Shown here piece by piece: positions 17,814 through 29,241 of a stretch of 64,000 nt of DNA. Below the pieces are notes generated by a model. The model was not told the DNA's origin and made no database searches. It worked only from the letters and a program-made list of their open reading frames with translations. Made by a program: the position numbers and the translations under genes. The DNA lies in NCBI GenBank assembly GCA_945865665.1, contig CAMBEE010000003.1:75379-139378 (forward strand), in the 5' to 3' direction. This DNA comes from an uncultured Clostridium sp. GTDB taxonomy: Bacteria; Bacillota; Clostridia; TANB77; CAG-508. Numbering within the stretch: the stretch's first letter is position 1; every line of letters starts with the position of its first letter.

Positions 17814-17904
17814 CATCCTATTTTGGCTTGTTATAAATTATTTTGCAAAAAGTAGAGTATACATGCTAAAGAAGAAACTTTTTTATTTGATATGGAGGAA
17901 TGTA

Positions 17905-19704
17905 ATGAAAAATAAAAAAATATTTCTAATAATATTTTTAATTGTTATACTTGGTGGTGGACTGGGTTTGATTGTAAAATTAAATATCACAAAAATAAAA
18001 GTAAAAAAAGAAAAAATACAGGACATATCTTTTTTTCCATATTCAAATAATGATGGATTAATAATTTTAGTCGAGGCAGAGGATTCTGAATATGGTATAA
18101 AAAAGGTTAATTATTATGATAAAAACAAACAAAGTAAAGAAATATATGGATATGGAAAAGAAAAGATTGCATTGGATTATAAAATTGATATACAAGGAGA
18201 ATATAAGTTTTCTTTTGAAAACCAAAATGGGGAAACAATTGAAAAAACGTTAGTTGTTGATGAAAACTATGAACAGAAACTTATAGATATAGATGTTGAG
18301 TCACAAAAAGAATTGGGAACAGAAGTTGAAATTACAATAAATTATAATAATATGCCGTTAAATTCTAAATATTTATATAAAGTTGGTAATAAAGGTGATG
18401 AGTGGAAAGAATATGATGGAGCATTTAAAGTTACATCATATGATGTGTTAGATGGTAATTTACAAAATGAAGATAATAATACAGTTACCATATATGCTAA
18501 AGCTGAAGATAATGTTAATAACAAAATTATAATAACTAAAAATATTGTGAATTTAGATTTAGATATTCCTGAAAAGCCTGAAATTAATGTTATAAAATCA
18601 GATGATTATGCAATGATAACTAGTGATGGAATTATATTAAATAGTGATGTTGAAATCGAGTACGACAAAAGAAATGATATAACTAATTATTATAGTTTAG
18701 ACCAAGGAAAAACATGGATTGTATATAATGGTAAAATAAGTGGAATGAAAAATTGGAGAATTTATGCAAAAAGTGTAAAAAATGATACTGGATTAGAATC
18801 TATATCAATAAAAGAGGCTAATCCTGCAAATAACGATGCGATAGGAGTAAGTGCATATGATAAAGATGAGACTACAAGTTTTACTACGAAATCTTCCGCA
18901 TTTATAAATGTTGATAGTAGTATGATTGGAAAGAATATAAAAGTAAAAATTGATTTAGGAGATTGGGCAGAATATAAGGGAAGTTTGAGATTGTTGGATA
19001 AGAATAATTCTGTAATATATTCTGAGGTGGCTTCGACAGGTACTCATACTATAAATATTATAAATGGAACGTCAAAATTCCAGTTTGCTCCATATAATGC
19101 CTGGGGAGCTCCTGATGAACTAGTGGAAATATCTATAGAGGATGAACCCAAAATAAATATAAATCATTCATATCCCAAAATGACATTAAATGGGGTTGAG
19201 CATTATTATGCAACTGCAACTATAGACTATTGGGAAAATTGTAAAGAAAAATTATATAAAATAAATGATGAAGATTGGAAAATATATAGTAATAGTGATA
19301 TTTTGTTGAGCATAGGAGATATATTATATGCCAAGGGAATAAACCAATTAGGGTATGAAACTAATATTTCAAAATATAATGTCGAATTACCAAATAATGC
19401 AATTGGACCAGAAGCTTATGATAAGAATGACCAGACTTATTTTTCAACCAGGGTATCATCTTATATGGATGTGGATAGTAGTATTGTTGGAAAAGTATTA
19501 AAAGTTAGTATAGTATTATCGGATGATTATTATAAAGCTAATTTAAGATTGTTAGATAAGAATAATGTTATAATAGATACTAAAGTTCTTTATAGTGGTA
19601 TTAACAATATAAATATTCTAGATGGAACGGCGAAAATCCAATTTAATCCATATAATGCGTGGCTTTCGTTAGATAAGTTGATGGAGATATCATTAGAAGA
19701 TTAA
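17905..19704 (+). CDS. Membrane-anchored protein with two ~100-aa C-terminal repeats. Unknown function.
   Basis: ATG 17905 with RBS TGGAGGAA. Signal-anchor IFLIIFLIVILGGGLGLIV. Repeats AIG[VP][SE]AYDK...F.T...S...VDSS[MI][IV]GK...V.I.L.D.......LRLLDKNN..I........G...I.I.DGT.K.QF.PYNAW. Confidence 0.5.
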   Translation: MKNKKIFLIIFLIVILGGGLGLIVKLNITKIKVKKEKIQDISFFPYSNNDGLIILVEAEDSEYGIKKVNYYDKNKQSKEIYGYGKEKIALDYKIDIQGEYKFSFENQNGETIEKTLVVDENYEQKLIDIDVESQKELGTEVEITINYNNMPLNSKYLYKVGNKGDEWKEYDGAFKVTSYDVLDGNLQNEDNNTVTIYAKAEDNVNNKIIITKNIVNLDLDIPEKPEINVIKSDDYAMITSDGIILNSDVEIEYDKRNDITNYYSLDQGKTWIVYNGKISGMKNWRIYAKSVKNDTGLESISIKEANPANNDAIGVSAYDKDETTSFTTKSSAFINVDSSMIGKNIKVKIDLGDWAEYKGSLRLLDKNNSVIYSEVASTGTHTINIINGTSKFQFAPYNAWGAPDELVEISIEDEPKININHSYPKMTLNGVEHYYATATIDYWENCKEKLYKINDEDWKIYSNSDILLSIGDILYAKGINQLGYETNISKYNVELPNNAIGPEAYDKNDQTYFSTRVSSYMDVDSSIVGKVLKVSIVLSDDYYKANLRLLDKNNVIIDTKVLYSGINNINILDGTAKIQFNPYNAWLSLDKLMEISLED

Positions 19705-19907
19705 TGATGGATATTATAAGAAAACTGAGATTGCTGAAATAGTAGTTGAAATATAGTTCAAAAATTGCGAATTGGAAAATGAATTTTCTATTCGCGATTT
19801 TTTATGGGATGATTTTTACACTTGTGTTTTTTTTTAATATATGCTATAATAATAGTTATATATTTAAAATGTACTTGAGTCTAATATAATTATAAGAAGG
19901 AGAAAAT

Positions 19908-20348
19908 ATGATTACAACAAAGTTATTGGAAGCTACTATTGAAAATTTATTAAGAGAAATGAAGAATCGGAATATAGTAAATGAGATTTTTCAGGCAAAA
20001 GATGTAAAGAGCAAATTTTTGGAAGAAAAAGAAGAAATCAAAAACCCGTTACAGGATTTCCAAATAAAAATGGTGCCATTTATAAAGCGTAATGAAGTGC
20101 CTTTCAATGAGATGCCAGGCTTTTTGAATAAAGATACTGTTGTGAATTTTTGTATGGCATTATTGATGACCGGAACAATTGACGATGATGATATAATTTT
20201 GGACTTTGATGGAATGAAAAAATTATTAAATAGTGTTGATGGAAATGATGCTGGAATTGCAGAAAAATTTGAAAACTTTTTGTATAATGAGGGGCGTTCA
20301 TTTTCAGAAATTAATCAAGATGAATTGATAAAAATTCTTTTACTTTAA
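19908..20348 (+). CDS. Hypothetical protein.
   Basis: ORF with RBS AAGGAGAAAATATG. No recognisable motifs. Confidence 0.35.
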   Translation: MITTKLLEATIENLLREMKNRNIVNEIFQAKDVKSKFLEEKEEIKNPLQDFQIKMVPFIKRNEVPFNEMPGFLNKDTVVNFCMALLMTGTIDDDDIILDFDGMKKLLNSVDGNDAGIAEKFENFLYNEGRSFSEINQDELIKILLL

Positions 20349-20395
20349 TAAAAGATTAATAAAAAAATGTAACATAAAATCACTCAAGTACAAAA

Positions 20396-20437
20396 AATAA
20401 GTAGAGAGCATTTTAGGTAATTCCTAAAATGCTTTTT
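20396..20437. terminator. Bidirectional rho-independent terminator overlapping the pflA stop codon.
   Basis: AGCATTTTAGG-TAATT-CCTAAAATGCT hairpin with T/A tracts on both sides. Confidence 0.5.
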
Positions 20438-21150
20438 GCTCTTTTTATATCATCATCATTTGCAACTCGTACACCATCTAATTCATATTTTAGACCTAAC
20501 TTTTCCCATTTATATCTACCCATATCGTGATATGGAAGAACTTCAACTTTATCAACAGTATTTAAACTATCGATAAAATTTTTCAGTTTTAATAAATCTT
20601 GTTCATCATCAGTATAATCAGGAACAAGAACCTGACGAATCCACATATGAATATTGTTTTCACTTAAGTAACGTGCAAAATCAAGTCCCTTTTCATTGCC
20701 AAATCCAACTAAATTTTTGCATTTTTCTGAATCGATATGTTTTATATCTAGTAAAACTAAATCTGTTAAAGAAAGTAATTTTTTTATATCTGGTGTTAAA
20801 GCAACCATACCTGAAGTGTCAACACAAGTATGAATGTTTTCTTTTTTTAGTTTCTCAAATAATTCAATTAGAAATTTGACTTGTAATAAAGGTTCTCCAC
20901 CTGTTACAGTTACACCACCATTTGGATAAATATAATTTTTATATTTCATAATTTTTTCGAATATATCATCTAATGATTTATATTCTCCACCATTCATATT
21001 CCATGTATCTCTGTTATGACAGTATTTACATTGTAGGTGGCACCCTTGTAAAAATAGTACAAATCTTATTCCTGGGCCATCAACTGTTCCAAATGATTCT
21101 ATTGAATGTATTTTTGCGTAGTATTTTAAATCAATATCTTTTTTTTTCAT
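20413..21150 (-). CDS. pflA: Pyruvate formate-lyase activating enzyme (glycyl-radical activase, radical SAM).
   Basis: GCHLQCKYCHNRDTW radical-SAM CxxxCxxC motif. ATG at 21148-21150 (MKKKDIDLKYY) with RBS AGGAGA. The track extension to 21180 runs into the palindromic element. Confidence 0.85.
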   Translation of the reverse strand: MKKKDIDLKYYAKIHSIESFGTVDGPGIRFVLFLQGCHLQCKYCHNRDTWNMNGGEYKSLDDIFEKIMKYKNYIYPNGGVTVTGGEPLLQVKFLIELFEKLKKENIHTCVDTSGMVALTPDIKKLLSLTDLVLLDIKHIDSEKCKNLVGFGNEKGLDFARYLSENNIHMWIRQVLVPDYTDDEQDLLKLKNFIDSLNTVDKVEVLPYHDMGRYKWEKLGLKYELDGVRVANDDDIKRAKSILGIT

Positions 21151-21171
21151 ATTGTTTCTCCTATAAAGATT

Positions 21172-21329
21172 GTGAACCAATGGGGACGTTCTTAAAATGG
21201 TTGTGAACCAATGGGGACGTTCTTAGATTGGTTGAAAAATAAAATAAAAATAAAAAATTAAAATTTCAACCAATCTAAGAACGTCCCCATTGGTTCACAA
21301 CCATTTTAAGAACGTCCCCATTGGTTCAC
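21172..21329. repeat. 158-bp perfect palindromic element (copy A of the CCAATGGGGACGTTCTTA family) filling the pflB-pflA intercistronic gap.
   Basis: Each arm holds two direct copies of GTGAACCAATGGGGACGTTCTTA. Left arm 21172-21236 is the exact reverse complement of right arm 21265-21329. About 27-nt A/T loop. Confidence 0.8.
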
Positions 21330-21341
21330 CTTTTTGTTTTT

Positions 21342-23579
21342 TTAAATTCTTTCGTGAATTGTTCTGTTTACAACATCTAATTGTTGTTCTCTTGTTAATT
21401 TTGTAAAGTTAACAGCATATCCAGAAACACGAATTGTAAGTTGAGGATATTTTTCTGGATGGTCCATAGCATCTAGTAATAAGCTTCTATCAAAAACATT
21501 TACATTGATGTGGTGACCTGTTTGTTTGAAATATCCATCTAACATATTAACCATATTTGTAACTCTTTCGTCTTCGGTTTTTCCAAGAGTTCCAGGTGTT
21601 ATTGAAAATGTGTAAGAAATACCATCTTCAGCTTCTTCAAATGGAAGTTTTGCAATTGAGTTCATAACTGCTAATGCTCCATTTGTATCTCTACCATGTA
21701 GAGGGTTTGCTCCTGGTCCGAATGGGGCTCCGGCTCTTCTTCCATCGGGTGTATTTCCTGTGTTTTTACCATAAACAACATTTGATGTTATTGTTAAAAT
21801 TGATAATGTTTGTTTTGAATTTCTATAAGTTTGATGTTTTTGCAATTTTTGTAAAAATCTTTTTACAACACATACAGCAATTTCGTCAACTCTGTTGTCA
21901 TCATTACCAAATTTAGGAAAGTCTCCTTCAATTTCATAATCGACAGCTAGACCTGTTTCATCTCTTATAACTTTTACTTTTGCATATTTTATAGCTGATA
22001 ATGAGTCAGCAACTACTGATAATCCAGCGATTCCACATGCCATTGTTCTTAAAATTTCTCTATCATGTAAAGCCATTTCGATTGCTTCATATGAATATTT
22101 ATCATGCATATAGTGAATTGCATTTAAAGCTTTTATATAAATTTTTGCAACATATTCCATCATTTGGTCAAATTTTTCTAAAACTTCGTCAAAGTCTAAG
22201 TATTCAGAAGTTATTGGTGCATATTTTGGTGTAACTTGTTTTCCAGAGATTTCGTCTCTACCGCCATTTATAGCATATAACAATGTTTTTGCTAAGTTTG
22301 CTCTTGCACCAAAGAATTGCATTTGTTTACCTATTTTCATAGGTGAAACACAACATGCGATTCCGTAATCATCACCTAATGTTATTCTCATTAAATCGTC
22401 ATTTTCGTATTGAATTGAAGATGTTTTTATAGATAAATCTGTTGTATATCTTTTAAATCCTTCTGGTAATCTTGTTGACCATAATACTGTTAAGTTTGGT
22501 TCTGGGGCAGGACCTAGGTTTTCTAGTGTGTGTAAAATCCTAAATGAGTTTTTAGTAACTAATGTTCTACCATCAATTCCCATACCACCAATACTTTCAG
22601 TTACCCAAACTGGGTCTCCACTGAATAGTTCGTTATATTCTGGTGTTCTTAAAAATCTAACTAATCTTAATTTCATAACAAAGTGGTCCATTATTTCTTG
22701 AACTTGCTCCTCTGTTAATGTTCCATCTGCTAAATCTCTTTCAAAATAGATGTCTAAGAATGTAGATGTTCTACCGATACTCATTGCAGCACCATTTTGG
22801 TCTTTTATTGCTCCTAAATATCCAAAGTATAACCATTGAACAGCTTCTTTTGCATTTGAAGCAGGTTTTGATATGTCATACCCATATTTTGCAGCCATTA
22901 CCTTTAATGCTTGTAATGCGTCAATTTGTTCTTTCATTTCTTCTCTTTCACGAATAATTTCTTCTGTGAATTCGTTTGTATCTAAAACTTCTAATTCTTC
23001 TTTTTTAAGTGCTATTAAAACATCAACACCGTAAAGAGCAACTCTTCTGTAATCTCCTATAATTCTTCCACGACCATATCCGTCTGGTAGACCTGTTATT
23101 AAATGACTACTTCTTGCAGCTCTTATGTCTGGTGTATATACACTGAAAACACCGTCATTATGTGTTTTTCTTATTGTATGGAAAATTTTATCAACCTCTG
23201 GGTCAACTTCTCTTCCATAAGCCTCACAAGATTTTTCTACAATACGGATTCCTCCAAATGGCATAATTGCTCTTTTTAAAGGTGCATCTGTTTGTAGACC
23301 TACGATTTCTTCTAAGTCTTTGTCAATGTATCCTGCGTCATGTGCGGCTACTGTTGATACTGTTTTTGTGTCAATATCTAATACTCCACCTTTTGCTTCT
23401 TTTTCTTTTTTATATAGTTCTAATACTTCGTCCCATAGTTTTTTTGTTTTTTCTGTTGTTCCTTTTAAGAAACTTGAGTCTCCTTCATATGGTGTGTAGT
23501 TGTTTTGTATGAAGTCTCTTACATTTATTTCGTGTTGCCAGTCTCCTGGTTTGAATTTGTTCCATTGTTCAAATTCCAT
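21342..23579 (-). CDS. pflB: Pyruvate formate-lyase (formate C-acetyltransferase).
   Basis: 745 aa. C-terminal glycine-radical motif [11 protein letters not shown]. Active-site region ACCVSPM. Confidence 0.9.
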
Positions 23580-23713
23580 TTTTGTACCTCCTTATTTTTT
23601 TCTTCTTTTAGTGTGTTCTTTTTTTCAAATATTATGATATCATAAGTGAGGTTGATTATCAATTATTTGAATAAATTTTTAAGTGAAATTTTTGTGAATA
23701 AAAAGCAACACCA

Positions 23714-24097
23714 TTATTTGATGTTGCTTTTTTTAAAGCTCTCTTCAAGCTGAAGTTTTACTAAATCATTAGCAAGTCTACTAATAACTTTTTTATTATA
23801 GTCATTTAATTGTGAATAATCTTCTAAAAATTTATTATCAACTAAATCTGCAAAAGCGGAAGAACTTGTATCAATCAAACCACTAAAAAGAAAATCTGTA
23901 GAGATATTAAGTGCATTACACAAACTAACAATAGTAGTAGCACTACCAAAAGCTATACCACGTTCCAATTGGCTGATATATCTTGGTGATAAAGAAGTTT
24001 TTTCTGCAAGAACTTCCTGTGTGTACTTAGTTTTAGTTCTAGCTAATTTCAATTTTTTTCCAATATTTTTTCTTAAATTTTTTTCGATTTCTGTCAT
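23714..24097 (-). CDS. XRE-family helix-turn-helix transcriptional regulator.
   Basis: LKLARTKTKYTQEVLAEKTSLSPRYISQLERG HTH_3 pattern. Terminator hairpin GCAACA...TGTTGC at 23700-23735. Confidence 0.6.
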   Translation of the reverse strand: MTEIEKNLRKNIGKKLKLARTKTKYTQEVLAEKTSLSPRYISQLERGIAFGSATTIVSLCNALNISTDFLFSGLIDTSSSAFADLVDNKFLEDYSQLNDYNKKVISRLANDLVKLQLEESFKKSNIK

Positions 24098-26947: not shown

Positions 26948-28939
26948 ATGGTGAAAATAAATTTATCAACAAAAAAGAGGATGAGAGTAACACTGTTTAT
27001 AATTTTTTTAATAATCGTATTGTTAATTGGAAGATTAGGATATGTGCAATTAATAGATGGAAAGAAATTATCAAAATTGGCATATGAACAACAAACACTA
27101 GATAGAACAATAAATCCAAAGAGAGGAACTATTTATGATACAACAGGGCAGGTTCTGGCACAAAGTAGTACTGTTGAAACAGTTACTGTGAATCCTGGAA
27201 ATATTGATAAGAATGATAAAGAAAAGGTAGCAAAAAAACTTTCTGATATTTTTGAGTTAGATTATGAAAAAACTTTGAAGAAAGTTTCTAAGAGAAGTTC
27301 TATAGAAACTATTGCTAAAAAGGTTGATAAGGAAAAGACTGATGAACTTAGAAAATGGATGGAAGAGGAGAATATAACAACAGGAATAAACATTGATGAA
27401 GATACAAAAAGATATTATCCTAATAATAATTTAGCATCTCAAATTATAGGATTTTGTGGAAGTGATAATCAAGGACTTGACGGAATTGAAGCAAAATATG
27501 ATAATGTGCTTTCTGGAACAAAAGGTGCAATTAAGAGACATACTGATGCAAAAGGTGGAGAAATAGGTGAAGAGGGTGAAACATATGTTGCAGCTAAAAA
27601 TGGAAATGATGTTGTTCTTACGATAGATATGAATATTCAATCAATTGTAGAAAAATATTTGAAAGAAGCATGTATTGACAATAAGTGTACAGATGGTGGA
27701 AATATTGTTGTTATGAATCCACAAAATGGTGATATTTTAGCGATGGCAACATATCCGAATTATAATTTAAATGAACCATATGCAGCATATACAGATGAAC
27801 TAAAAGGTATCTGGGATACAACAGATCAGGCAGAAAAGACTAAAAGCTTACAGGCTGTTTGGAGAAATAGAGCAATTACAGATACATATGAGCCTGGTTC
27901 AACGTTTAAAACTATTACTGCATCTGCATCTCTTGAGGAGGGGCTAGTTACAGATATAGATAAACAGGGACAATTCTGTTGTACAGGTGGAATTGAAGTT
28001 GCGGGAGTAAGAATAAAATGTTGGAGATATTATAGACCACATGGAGCAGAAAGTTTGAGACAGGCATTAATGAATTCGTGTAACCCAATTTTTATAGGTC
28101 TAGGTCAAAAAATGGGTGTTCACACGTATTATAGCTATTTACAGAAATTTGGTTTATTAGAGAAAACTGGAATTGATTTGCCAGGTGAGGCAGGAAGTAT
28201 ATTTTTAGCTGAAAATAAGGCTGGTCCTGTTGAATTAGCAACAATAAGCTTTGGCCAAAGATTTGAAATTACTCCAATTCAGTTGGTAACAGCTGTTTCT
28301 TCAATAGCAAATGGTGGAAATTTAGTCCAACCAAGAGTGGTTAAATCAATAATTGATAGTGAAACAGGTGAAAGAACAGATATTGAAACAAAAGTTAAAT
28401 CGCAGACAATTTCTAAAGAAACATCGGAAAAAGTTTTAAGTATGATGGAATCTGTTGTTTCAGAAGGTACTGGTAAAAATGCTAAAGTTGCAGGTTATAG
28501 AATTGGTGGAAAGACTGGAACTTCTGAAGATGGTGTAAATACTAATAAATATGTTACTTCATTTTTAGGTGTTGCACCTATTGAAAATCCACAAGTGGTT
28601 TTGCTGGTTACTTTGTACAATCCGACTGGTGAGGGAGGACATCAAGGTGGTGGTGTTGCAGCACCTGTTGGAGGTCAAGTTTTTAGTGAGATTTTGCCTT
28701 ATTTGGAAGTATCACAGGAAAATCAAGATGAGGTTGAACAGGTTGAACAAATTCAGGTTCCTAATGTTGAAGGATTAAGTATTAAAGAGGCGGAAAAAGC
28801 TACTAAAGAAGTGGGGTTGGAAATTAGTGTTCAAAATGATTCAGAAGAACTTGATAGGGAAAATACGGTTATTAAGGAACAGTCTCCAAGAGAAGGTGTT
28901 AGTGTTAATAAAGGTAGTAAAATTTTTGTGGAATTTTAA
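26948..28939 (+). CDS. Class B penicillin-binding protein transpeptidase (FtsI/SpoVD family) with C-terminal PASTA domain.
   Basis: STFK active-site serine motif (GSTFKTIT), SCN (MNSCNP), KTGT (GGKTGT). C-terminal PASTA VPNVEGLSIKEAEKATKEVGLEISV. Confidence 0.8.
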   Translation: MVKINLSTKKRMRVTLFIIFLIIVLLIGRLGYVQLIDGKKLSKLAYEQQTLDRTINPKRGTIYDTTGQVLAQSSTVETVTVNPGNIDKNDKEKVAKKLSDIFELDYEKTLKKVSKRSSIETIAKKVDKEKTDELRKWMEEENITTGINIDEDTKRYYPNNNLASQIIGFCGSDNQGLDGIEAKYDNVLSGTKGAIKRHTDAKGGEIGEEGETYVAAKNGNDVVLTIDMNIQSIVEKYLKEACIDNKCTDGGNIVVMNPQNGDILAMATYPNYNLNEPYAAYTDELKGIWDTTDQAEKTKSLQAVWRNRAITDTYEPGSTFKTITASASLEEGLVTDIDKQGQFCCTGGIEVAGVRIKCWRYYRPHGAESLRQALMNSCNPIFIGLGQKMGVHTYYSYLQKFGLLEKTGIDLPGEAGSIFLAENKAGPVELATISFGQRFEITPIQLVTAVSSIANGGNLVQPRVVKSIIDSETGERTDIETKVKSQTISKETSEKVLSMMESVVSEGTGKNAKVAGYRIGGKTGTSEDGVNTNKYVTSFLGVAPIENPQVVLLVTLYNPTGEGGHQGGGVAAPVGGQVFSEILPYLEVSQENQDEVEQVEQIQVPNVEGLSIKEAEKATKEVGLEISVQNDSEELDRENTVIKEQSPREGVSVNKGSKIFVEF

Positions 28940-29117
28940 ACCAATGGAACCAATGGGGACGTTCTTGAATTGAACCAATGGGGACGTTCTTAAATTGGTT
29001 GAAATTTATAAAATTTAAATATAAATCTTTATTATTAATTTTTCAACCAATTTAAGAACGTCCCCATTGGTTCCCATTGGTTCAATTCAAAAACGTCCCT
29101 ATTGGTTCCATTGGTTC
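28940..29117. repeat. About 178-bp imperfect palindromic element (copy B of the CCAATGGGGACGTTCTTA family) between the PBP stop and murE.
   Basis: Left arm ACCAATGGAACCAATGGGGACGTTCTTGAATTGAACCAATGGGGACGTTCTTAAATTGGTTGAAA. Right arm is the reverse complement with an extra degenerate unit. AT-rich ~38-nt loop. Confidence 0.75.
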
Positions 29118-29241
29118 AAAAATATTAGTACAAAATTCTCAAAAAACTCTATACAAAAAGCAAAAATAGTTATATAATGTAACCAAAATTATGAGCAAAA
29201 ATTTGGTCATAAAACATATTAAAATGAAGGGATGATTCTAA

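Follow-up and report, generated by a model that had tools for sequence, protein, structure and literature searches.

A perfect palindrome between pflB and pflA of an uncultured gut Clostridium is very probably a compound copy of a REP/REPIN-type repeat family linked to a Y1/HUH transposase

In the stretch of DNA analysed here (the window; 64,000 nt of contig CAMBEE010000003.1 from an uncultured Clostridium sp.), the genes pflB and pflA are separated by a gap that is filled almost entirely by a perfect palindrome, at positions 21172-21329. Is this hairpin a device dedicated to the pfl operon, or is it one copy of a repeat that occurs at many other places? We document below its anatomy, the dispersal of its repeat unit, the link of the unit to a transposase and the turnover of elements at this site, and we consider it very probable that the hairpin is a compound copy of a clade-specific, non-autonomous repeat family of the repetitive extragenic palindrome (REP)/REPIN type that is linked to a Y1/HUH transposase.

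Both genes lie on the minus strand, with pflB (formate C-acetyltransferase, 21342-23579; TIGR01255, 1229 bits) upstream on the mRNA and pflA (PFL activase, 20413-21150; TIGR02493, 314 bits) downstream. The gap between them (21151-21341) is 191 nt long and the element occupies 158 of these, leaving 12 nt to the pflB stop codon and 21 nt to the pflA ATG; the latter include the AGGAG ribosome-binding site of pflA (21158-21162, minus strand), which the foot of the hairpin approaches to within 9 nt.

The element as a whole, which has no strand of its own, is a compound palindrome of 2+2 units resembling a REPIN or a bacterial interspersed mosaic element (BIME). Repeat analysis resolved its left arm (21172-21237) into two tandem units in + orientation and its right arm (21264-21329) into two in - orientation; the arms are 66 nt long and 100% complementary, and the 26 nt between them (21238-21263) consist of A and T only. 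The sequence GTGAACCAATGGGGACGTTCTTA occurs exactly twice in each arm, starting in the left one at 21172 and 21203 (period 31) and mirrored in the opposite one. The inner-left unit (21206-21233, +) forms a hairpin with the stem AACCAAT/ATTGGTT and the loop GGGGACGTTCTTAG, and is mirrored by the inner-right unit (21268-21295, -); the outer-left unit (21175-21202, +), with the imperfect stem AACCAAT/AATGGTT and the loop GGGGACGTTCTTAA, is mirrored by the outer-right unit (21299-21326, -). Upon folding, the minus-strand (sense) RNA of the element gave the full 66-bp stem, with -123.6 kcal/mol and z = -21. The core 18-mer CCAATGGGGACGTTCTTA was matched eight times in the window at up to three mismatches, against 0.02 matches expected, and all eight are confined to this element and to a second locus at 28934-29121. 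An earlier note on the window, made from its letters, had described a perfect 158-bp hairpin with two direct unit copies per arm, a perfect stem on the minus-strand RNA and a recurrence of the unit at 28940-29117; all of this was borne out. Only the dimensions had to be corrected, since the arms and loop, given as 65 nt and about 27 nt, measure 66 and 26 nt, and the repeated word, called a 21-mer, is the 18-mer.

The second element (28934-29121) also has 2+2 units, of which the outer pair is degenerate. It lies between a spoVD-like penicillin-binding protein gene, whose stop codon it overlaps, and murE, and was found at the orthologous place in L049 and L198. Half-units that lack the loop, AACCAATGGAACC and GGTTCCATTGGTT, flank it at 28940-28952 and 29105-29118, respectively.

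The pfl hairpin is not a product of misassembly. In L010/L100 (metagenome-assembled genome, MAG, CAKOWP) and L156, which are independent assemblies from this species, elements with identical arms stand at the same place, and two short-read contigs that encode an identical PflA (L061, L062) stop at the edge of the element; because independent assemblies share it and short-read contigs end there, we take it to be real and neither an artefact nor a chimera.

In order to follow the unit beyond the window, the 17-mer CCAATGGGGACGTTCTT was scanned against 185,579 reference genomes (596 Gb), which returned 60 loci. About 70 single matches were calculated as chance in 596 Gb, and single matches were seen in high-GC taxa. 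Clustered or multiple matches occurred only in about ten MAGs of uncultured low-GC (25-30%) gut Clostridia, among them Clostridium sp. CAG:575, and in gut metagenome contigs, and a metagenome scan added 38 more low-GC loci. The closing stem of the hairpin was present at 93 of 126 low-GC matches but at only 7 of 99 high-GC or viral ones, and at none of the seven matches on viral contigs, which we rejected as chance; the absence of the closing stem likewise marks the high-GC matches as chance. The fragmentary MAGs hold 3-11 exact-core sites each. Only one clade of gut Clostridia, uncultured and of low GC content, thus has the unit, which occupies dozens of intergenic sites there.

The building block of the family is a hairpin of about 28-32 nt, in which a (G)AACCAAT/ATTGGTT(C) stem closes a loop of about 14 nt, GGGGACGTTCTTAA. 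Across the family the stems are A/T-rich, 5-8 bp long and variable, and the loop carries the conserved motif GGGGACG(T/G)..TCT. In other MAGs the same loop sits on stems that differ in a compensatory way (TTGCCAA/TTGGCAA or CTGCCAA/TTGGCAG, for example), and in 0.9 Mb of low-GC sequence a GGGGAC[GA] loop was enclosed by more than 20 different stems. Excluding the family that had served as bait, 16 of 31 distinct GGGGAC[GA] sites were enclosed in a hairpin (stem of at least 6 bp), as compared with 0/28, 0/19, 0/33, 0/38 and 3/66 for control motifs and 0.9/30 for shuffled flanks. This comparison replaced a column-wise covariation analysis on MAFFT alignments of the units, which was dropped since the loops differed by 1 nt and the stems lay in two registers. 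With enclosure of GGGGAC[GA] so far above the controls, the conserved feature of the family is the loop, carried on a stem of arbitrary sequence. Units occur in three forms, namely as solo units, as convergent doublets folding into a single long hairpin, and as arms of two to four tandem units; the convergent arrangement is invariably + followed by -.

The compensatory stems bear on the idea that the repeats are arrays of double-stranded DNA sites for a host protein, either a nucleoid-associated or helix-turn-helix (HTH) protein or possibly the HTH tail of the transposase described below, and serve chromosome organisation or act as a transcription roadblock. The core does come close to a dyad about ACGT (GGAC|GTTC here; the variant of L148 has a perfect GGAC-G-GTCC), units repeat at spacings of 22-35 bp, and the transposase homologues share a conserved C-terminal HTH-like segment. 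The conserved motif, however, always lies within a compensatorily varying stem, which recognition of a hairpin needs and a duplex site does not; the arms of each element co-vary; and no candidate binding protein was identified. We give this explanation only a slim chance.

Regarding position, 39 of 41 classifiable sites are intergenic, 30 of them between co-directional, 7 between convergent and 2 between divergent genes, so that at least one gene ends upstream of 37 of the 39. Many copies span the whole interval from a stop codon to the next ribosome-binding site; a literature search found no support for stop-codon-proximal REPs causing trans-translation. Among 40 elements, flanks matching over at least 2 nt were found in 15%, against 13% in the control, that is, there are no target-site duplications above background, as is expected for Y1 transposition. 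Genes bracketed by units in the MAG loci are of housekeeping type (recR, xth, dnaB/rplI, uppP, an L,D-transpeptidase-like gene and a small GIY-YIG gene). A small stand-alone gene of the GIY-YIG nuclease family (~100 aa; PF01541, 61 bits) has units in its flanking gaps at three loci, probably representing one orthologous site (L212 11914-12293; L210 12776-13155; L043 6741-7106). Dense runs of units, with 4-5 sites per 3-6 kb, surround a cluster of ABC-transporter, peptidase and L,D-transpeptidase-like genes in L116 (6.5 kb) and in L210 10133-13155.

Two metagenome contigs that were recovered via the unit, L187 and L148, carry a transposase gene with a product of about 250 aa (L187 719-1474; L148 3633-4406), matching Pfam Y1_Tnp with 55.5 and 42 bits, respectively (cutoff 23). 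The best NCBIfam match of both products was REP_Tyr_transpos (REP-associated tyrosine transposase, RAYT; NF047646), with 71.9 and 71.1 bits (E ~1e-19). Both genes are bracketed by two units of opposite orientation: in L187, CAACCAATGGGGACGTTCTTCAACTGGTTG precedes the gene by 75 nt and CAACCAAAATAAACAACGTCCCCAATGGTTG runs across its stop codon, and in L148 a variant with the stem TCGCCAAA stands on either side. A bracketed transposase was seen in L187, L217, L218-L227, L228-L232 and L148, all of them related contigs other than the window's genome. The downstream unit encodes the final residues (..NVPNG) of several RAYT homologues. In all lineages the interval from the upstream unit to the RAYT start contains short conserved motifs, AATGGGGGAAAA / ATGGGGGCATTAAG and GTGGGACTAAAA, as a candidate regulatory site (L187 650-718; L218 5925-6000; L222 5880-6000; L148, reverse complement, upstream of 4406; L228 4960-5000).

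A homologue search returned 427 proteins, mostly on contigs of 1-2 kb. Homologues of 88%, 57%, 56% and 44% identity share one slot, in the order RNase J gene (rnj), unit (+), RAYT, unit (-), gltX, and each has its own unit variant, with AACCAAT, AACCAT or AACCCA stems. This gene order is kept among homologues from 100% to 44% identity, and a paralogue with 34% identity (L148) lies elsewhere; the fixed rnj-gltX position in diverged lineages is consistent with vertical inheritance. The HUH (NHxH) and tyrosine (YIHxNP) motifs are invariant among the homologues. The C-terminal tail of about 110 aa contains a conserved HTH-like SERKLAEIF..TRYxIRKILK segment; it gave weak HTH_23 matches, carries a PF13384 annotation in P0182 and P0215, and is helical in the AlphaFold model. 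Against the Protein Data Bank (PDB), the best match of the family profile was E. coli TnpA-REP (4ER8, E = 0.0013); a phmmer search with a single RAYT had given only spurious L29 matches in the tail, so that the profile was needed. The same structure was the best Foldseek match of the AlphaFold model (predicted local distance difference test, pLDDT, >90 in the core), with E = 6e-7 and a template modelling (TM) score of 0.67 normalised to the target, and was followed by the ISDra2 and IS608 TnpAs (2XMA, 2VJV, 2A6M; E ~1e-5). The transposase is probably a domesticated enzyme of the RAYT/TIRYT class, and its gene stands in a REPtron/TIRtron layout. An early search of the first 81 loci and the window with approximate IS608 TnpA and E. 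coli RAYT queries found no transposase; the RAYT-bearing contigs were not among these loci.

The RAYT-bearing contigs belong to the same clade as the repeat-rich MAG CAYQBQ, because their rnj and gltX are 84-94% identical to those of its L058; the genes that CAYQBQ has in common with the window are in turn about 81-82% identical. In CAYQBQ, rnj adjoins gltX with only AACCATTGGTTG between them (L058 4400-4420), that is, two stem halves without loop or gene, which resemble the half-units beside the second element of the window. To judge from this remnant, the site may be an emptied REPtron, the scar of an excision or of a deletion. As CAYQBQ has units but no gene at rnj-gltX, units can persist without the RAYT gene.

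The transposase also speaks against a classical miniature inverted-repeat transposable element (MITE), that is, one derived by deletion from an insertion sequence of the DDE type and moved by way of its terminal inverted repeats. The elements are small, non-coding, palindromic, dispersed and intergenic, and their presence differs between species, all of which such an element would share. Target-site duplications are at background, though, no DDE transposase was found beside any copy, units occur solo and in tandem arrays as well, and the sole transposase bracketed by units is a Y1/HUH enzyme. Because of this association and the lack of duplications we do not regard the family as classical MITEs, an origin that is extremely improbable; of the label REP/MITE-like, which had been proposed for the repeat, the dispersed REP-like part stands and the MITE part does not.

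The content of the pfl site differs between lineages. Those with 91-95% identical PflA hold four different fillings in the pflB-pflA gap: (i) the 2+2 element of the window, L010/L100 and L156, (ii) a doublet of GGGATTGGGGGACGGGTCTCTAATCCC units in L074, L094 and others, (iii) one degenerate GGGATT unit together with one unit with a TTCGGAA stem in L063-L073 and L088, and (iv) one GGGATT unit together with an unrelated rod-like element of 140 nt in L082-L087. An empty gap was sought among the relatives and none was seen; every lineage examined has some hairpin there, ending 5-10 nt ahead of the ribosome-binding site. A difference in occupancy between species was observed downstream of the gene ending at 35611, where L021 and L006, with flanks 81-82% identical to the window, have doublets and the window has instead an ordinary terminator-like hairpin, aaacaaagtacaagagag...cttgtactttgttt (35612-35660).

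That unrelated elements take turns in the gap speaks against a dedicated role of the pfl palindrome that depends on its sequence, i.e., against a cis-regulator (terminator or attenuator, RNase III site, or stabiliser) that sets the PflB:PflA ratio and to which the repeats elsewhere would be incidental. Such a role could appeal to the extreme stability of the RNA hairpin, to the presence of some hairpin at this very spot in every lineage, to the stronger conservation of the arms than of the flanking coding DNA, and to precedents in E. coli, in which REP hairpins stabilise the upstream mRNA of operons and a terminator separates pflB from pflA. Against it stand the dozens of unrelated intergenic sites of the unit, the spoVD-murE gap of the window included, the different gap sequences of sister lineages, and L077 and L078, in which pflA follows mfd without pflB and the repeat is retained. 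Nor does the element look like an intrinsic terminator (GC-rich stem, short loop, U-tract), a candidate that we rejected: the sense strand past the stem reads AAUCUUUAUAGGAG, with no U-tract, and a terminator and promoter scan gave nothing above background at the element. Rfam yielded no family at the gathering threshold, and only sub-threshold matches to generic miRNA-like hairpins (20-30 kb at the E-value threshold; the whole window at the gathering threshold; 32.8-33.2 kb). The earlier note had already held that this was not a local terminator, and had named as one contrary outcome a unit found at these two loci only, with orthologous positions conserved across genera; the dozens of unrelated sites and the differing gap fillings agree with its view. 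We therefore hold a dedicated pfl regulator to be unlikely.

An effect on the operon is a separate matter. The earlier note had proposed that the hairpin could uncouple pflB from pflA, as an RNase III site or a stabiliser, or could be a palindrome to which a protein binds; what speaks for this is the extreme stability of the RNA hairpin. Since neither an internal promoter nor a terminator is predicted, pflA is probably co-transcribed through the element, and a 66-bp perfect RNA duplex must form on the pflBA transcript. By analogy with REP hairpins and with RNase III substrates, this stem could shield the pflB mRNA from 3' exonucleases or could be cut, lowering pflA relative to pflB, and an influence on the expression of both genes is plausible. 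Any such effect is likely to be generic and secondary, with no dedicated pfl control, because close relatives hold four unrelated fillings and many other operons carry the unit.

The inverted doublets of the family evolve as units. Compared with L010 and L156, the arms of the window's element show 0 differences in 132 nt, whereas the coding DNA on either side has diverged by 3.9% and 7.8% (P = 0.005 and 2e-5, respectively). Arms belonging to one element have an identity of 0.87, as against 0.71 for arms of separate elements (41 distinct doublets), and a private variant of one arm recurs in mirror form in the other. The central A/T loop of the window is the reverse complement of the loop in the L010 and L156 assemblies (alignment score 26.5 when flipped, -1.5 when direct), a flip that recombination of one perfect arm with the other, or re-insertion, would be expected to produce. 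In two assemblies made independently, L077 (640-830) and L078, the place of pflB ahead of pflA is taken by the 3' end of mfd, and the switch in homology falls inside the left GGGATT unit; as homology to the pflB-pflA configuration begins within this unit, the repeat marks a rearrangement junction.

Elements were also found nested within one another. This is the case at 32915-33115 and the orthologous places, where the loop of another palindrome family holds either a unit or the 140-nt element. In that family, GGGATTA(A/C)GGGG(C)CACCAC..AATCCC units form convergent doublets (32915-32940 and 33085-33115 in the window; L006 2058-2164; L013 4970-5156; L033 4290-4396; L053 7533-7639; and L021, orthologous to window 32897-33099). 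At this position, orthologous in three species, the loop hosts a CCAATGGGG unit in L006, a remnant in L021 and the 140-nt element in the window. The latter (32941-33080) has imperfect terminal inverted repeats of about 29 nt, folds into a rod (-47.8 kcal/mol, z = -8.6), belongs to no Rfam family and sits between two + strand genes of the mur/fts cluster. The closest sister lineage (L082-L087) has an approximately 96% identical copy of these 140 nt between pflB and pflA, oriented the same way with respect to transcription. The 140-nt element is a candidate for a second mobile element or for a small RNA that is mobile.

Taken together, these observations suggest the following scheme, in which the chemistry is modelled on the homology to TnpA-REP and to the IS608 and ISDra2 TnpAs. 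The transposase would recognise the folded hairpin in single-stranded DNA and would cut and rejoin it by HUH/Y1 chemistry, and units would thereby be spread, rearranged or replaced. New copies would favour hairpins already present in the 3' regions of genes and between cistrons, settling within or next to them, with the pflB-pflA gap as one such permissive hot spot, and the perfection of the palindromes would be kept either by homogenisation from arm to arm or by selection for the hairpin. The RNA stem on the pflBA transcript would then probably act, as a side effect, as a generic REP-like barrier or processing site.

Several points weigh against placing the hairpin in a transposase-linked REP/REPIN family. 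Differences between filled and empty sites lie between species and not between strains, and no transposition was directly observed; the flip of the central loop could reflect an arbitrary choice by the assembler, had it worked with k-mers that do not span the 66-nt arm. Both transposases score under the NCBIfam RAYT cutoff of 80 bits. The window contains no RAYT, rnj or gltX, so that the transposase link comes from related contigs; CAYQBQ lacks a RAYT at rnj-gltX and yet has at least 11 unit sites; and no RAYT with flanking units of GGGATT type was seen among the loci examined. Finally, the units are without canonical REP features, having no GTAG/GTGG foot, A/T-rich stems of 5-8 bp and a 14-nt loop. 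We nevertheless retain the REP/REPIN-type reading as the very probable one, and put forward a wider proposal more tentatively, as one that may well prove wrong: gut Clostridia may possess a vertically inherited, undescribed REPIN-RAYT (TIRYT-type) system, whose transposase would read the conserved 14-nt loop GGGGACGTTCTT rather than a foot tetranucleotide. Stems would therefore be free to diversify into many sub-families per genome, nesting copies would make gaps such as pflB-pflA into replacement hot spots, and the hairpins may be co-opted to tune operon expression.

Other features of the window may be noted here. The region 4366-4630, which is not related by sequence to the pfl repeat family, forms an imperfect, nested palindrome rich in A and T, with 66-nt arms at 4410-4475 and 4524-4589 (77% complementary) and outer arms at 4366-4411 and 4585-4630. 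Gene content around the pfl operon varies between strains (17816-20395 and 23692-23700 of the window, as compared with L010/L100). Downstream of pflA, L100 has an AAA_14/DUF4143 ATPase gene and the window an open reading frame (ORF) of 146 aa of unknown function; beside the HTH repressor gene (23714-24097), L010 is longer by about 2.5 kb. Other lineages have there unknown ORFs of 145, 152 or 168 aa, followed by a weakly Replic_Relax-like gene of 310 aa.

REP/REPIN-RAYT systems have been studied nearly all in Proteobacteria. The available part of Di Nocera et al. (2013; PMC3733652) does not mention Firmicutes, and in Bertels et al. (2017) Clostridia figure solely as hosts of Group 1 RAYTs, whose flanking repeats are of low abundance, abundant repeats being found only with Groups 2 and 3. 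The present family is a clear example from abundant uncultured Clostridia of the human and animal gut, combining hairpins with a conserved loop, a cognate transposase in a fixed slot and a turnover that is visible at one intercistronic site. Its perfect palindromes interrupt short-read assemblies and mark rearrangement junctions, and so affect the quality of MAGs; if the effect at the RNA level is true, the family would modulate the polarity of operons quite generally in these bacteria.

How does this family compare with known systems? With the REP/BIME/REPIN elements of Proteobacteria and their RAYT (TnpA-REP; Nunvar 2010; Bertels & Rainey 2011, PMC3116915; Ton-Hoang 2012; structure 4ER8) it shares a short hairpin unit that is dispersed, intergenic and mostly 3' of genes, the predominance of an inverted doublet folding as one long hairpin, the existence of clusters, and the absence of target-site duplications. 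It likewise has a Y1/HUH gene that is bracketed by inverted units (a REPtron), holds a fixed locus in diverged lineages and can be lost while the units stay. Canonical REPs follow other rules, with a 5' GTAG/GTGG foot, a GC-rich stem of 7-20 bp and a loop of 2-5 nt (PMC6006769), whereas here a large 14-nt loop is conserved rather than a stem or foot, the host is a Firmicute (Clostridia), and the transposase is about 250 aa long, with a C-terminal HTH-like tail and a score just under the NCBIfam RAYT cutoff.

The CGTC-REPs, as described by Di Nocera et al. (2013; PMC3733652), have an unpaired terminal CGTC, a stem of 8-9 bp, a loop of 4-5 nt, a CCA tail and no transposase. The present units have CGTC in the complementary strand of their conserved motif (AAGAACGTCCCC), and are likewise intergenic and form head-to-head dimers; they differ in that their CGTC lies in the middle of a 14-nt loop and a Y1 transposase is associated. 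Membership among the CGTC-tagged REPs was ruled out on this structure. The ends of IS200/IS605 elements (IS608, ISDra2) are similar in the fold of the transposase, in the lack of duplications and, by homology, in the putative recognition of single-stranded DNA hairpins. Unlike in those elements, there is no tnpB here, both ends are the same unit inverted, and the gene appears to be single, at a fixed locus, and not multi-copy.

The closest published description is that of the TIRtrons. Di Nocera et al. (2013; PMC3733652) present these as RAYT-like enzymes (TIRYTs) with a C-terminal HTH-like domain and inverted repeats sharing GGGGWSAS, which may be self-complementary and are moderately abundant as singles, dimers and clusters; the examples listed in the text consulted come from Proteobacteria and Acidobacteria, unlike the present host. 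As in TIRtrons, the Y1 transposase is longer than canonical RAYTs and has a C-terminal HTH-like domain, and the inverted flanking repeats share a G-rich motif, here GGGGACGT/GGGGACGG, which match the published GGGGWSAS at 6-7 of 8 positions and not at every one. Quentin et al. (2018; PMC6006769) equate TIRYT with TnpA-Y1 subclass 2.1 and found no REP-like sequences near the genes of that subclass, whereas the flanks here are clear hairpin units that are also dispersed. Seen against all of these systems, the distinctive traits of the family are a conserved loop on variable stems, a Firmicute host and arms built of several units.

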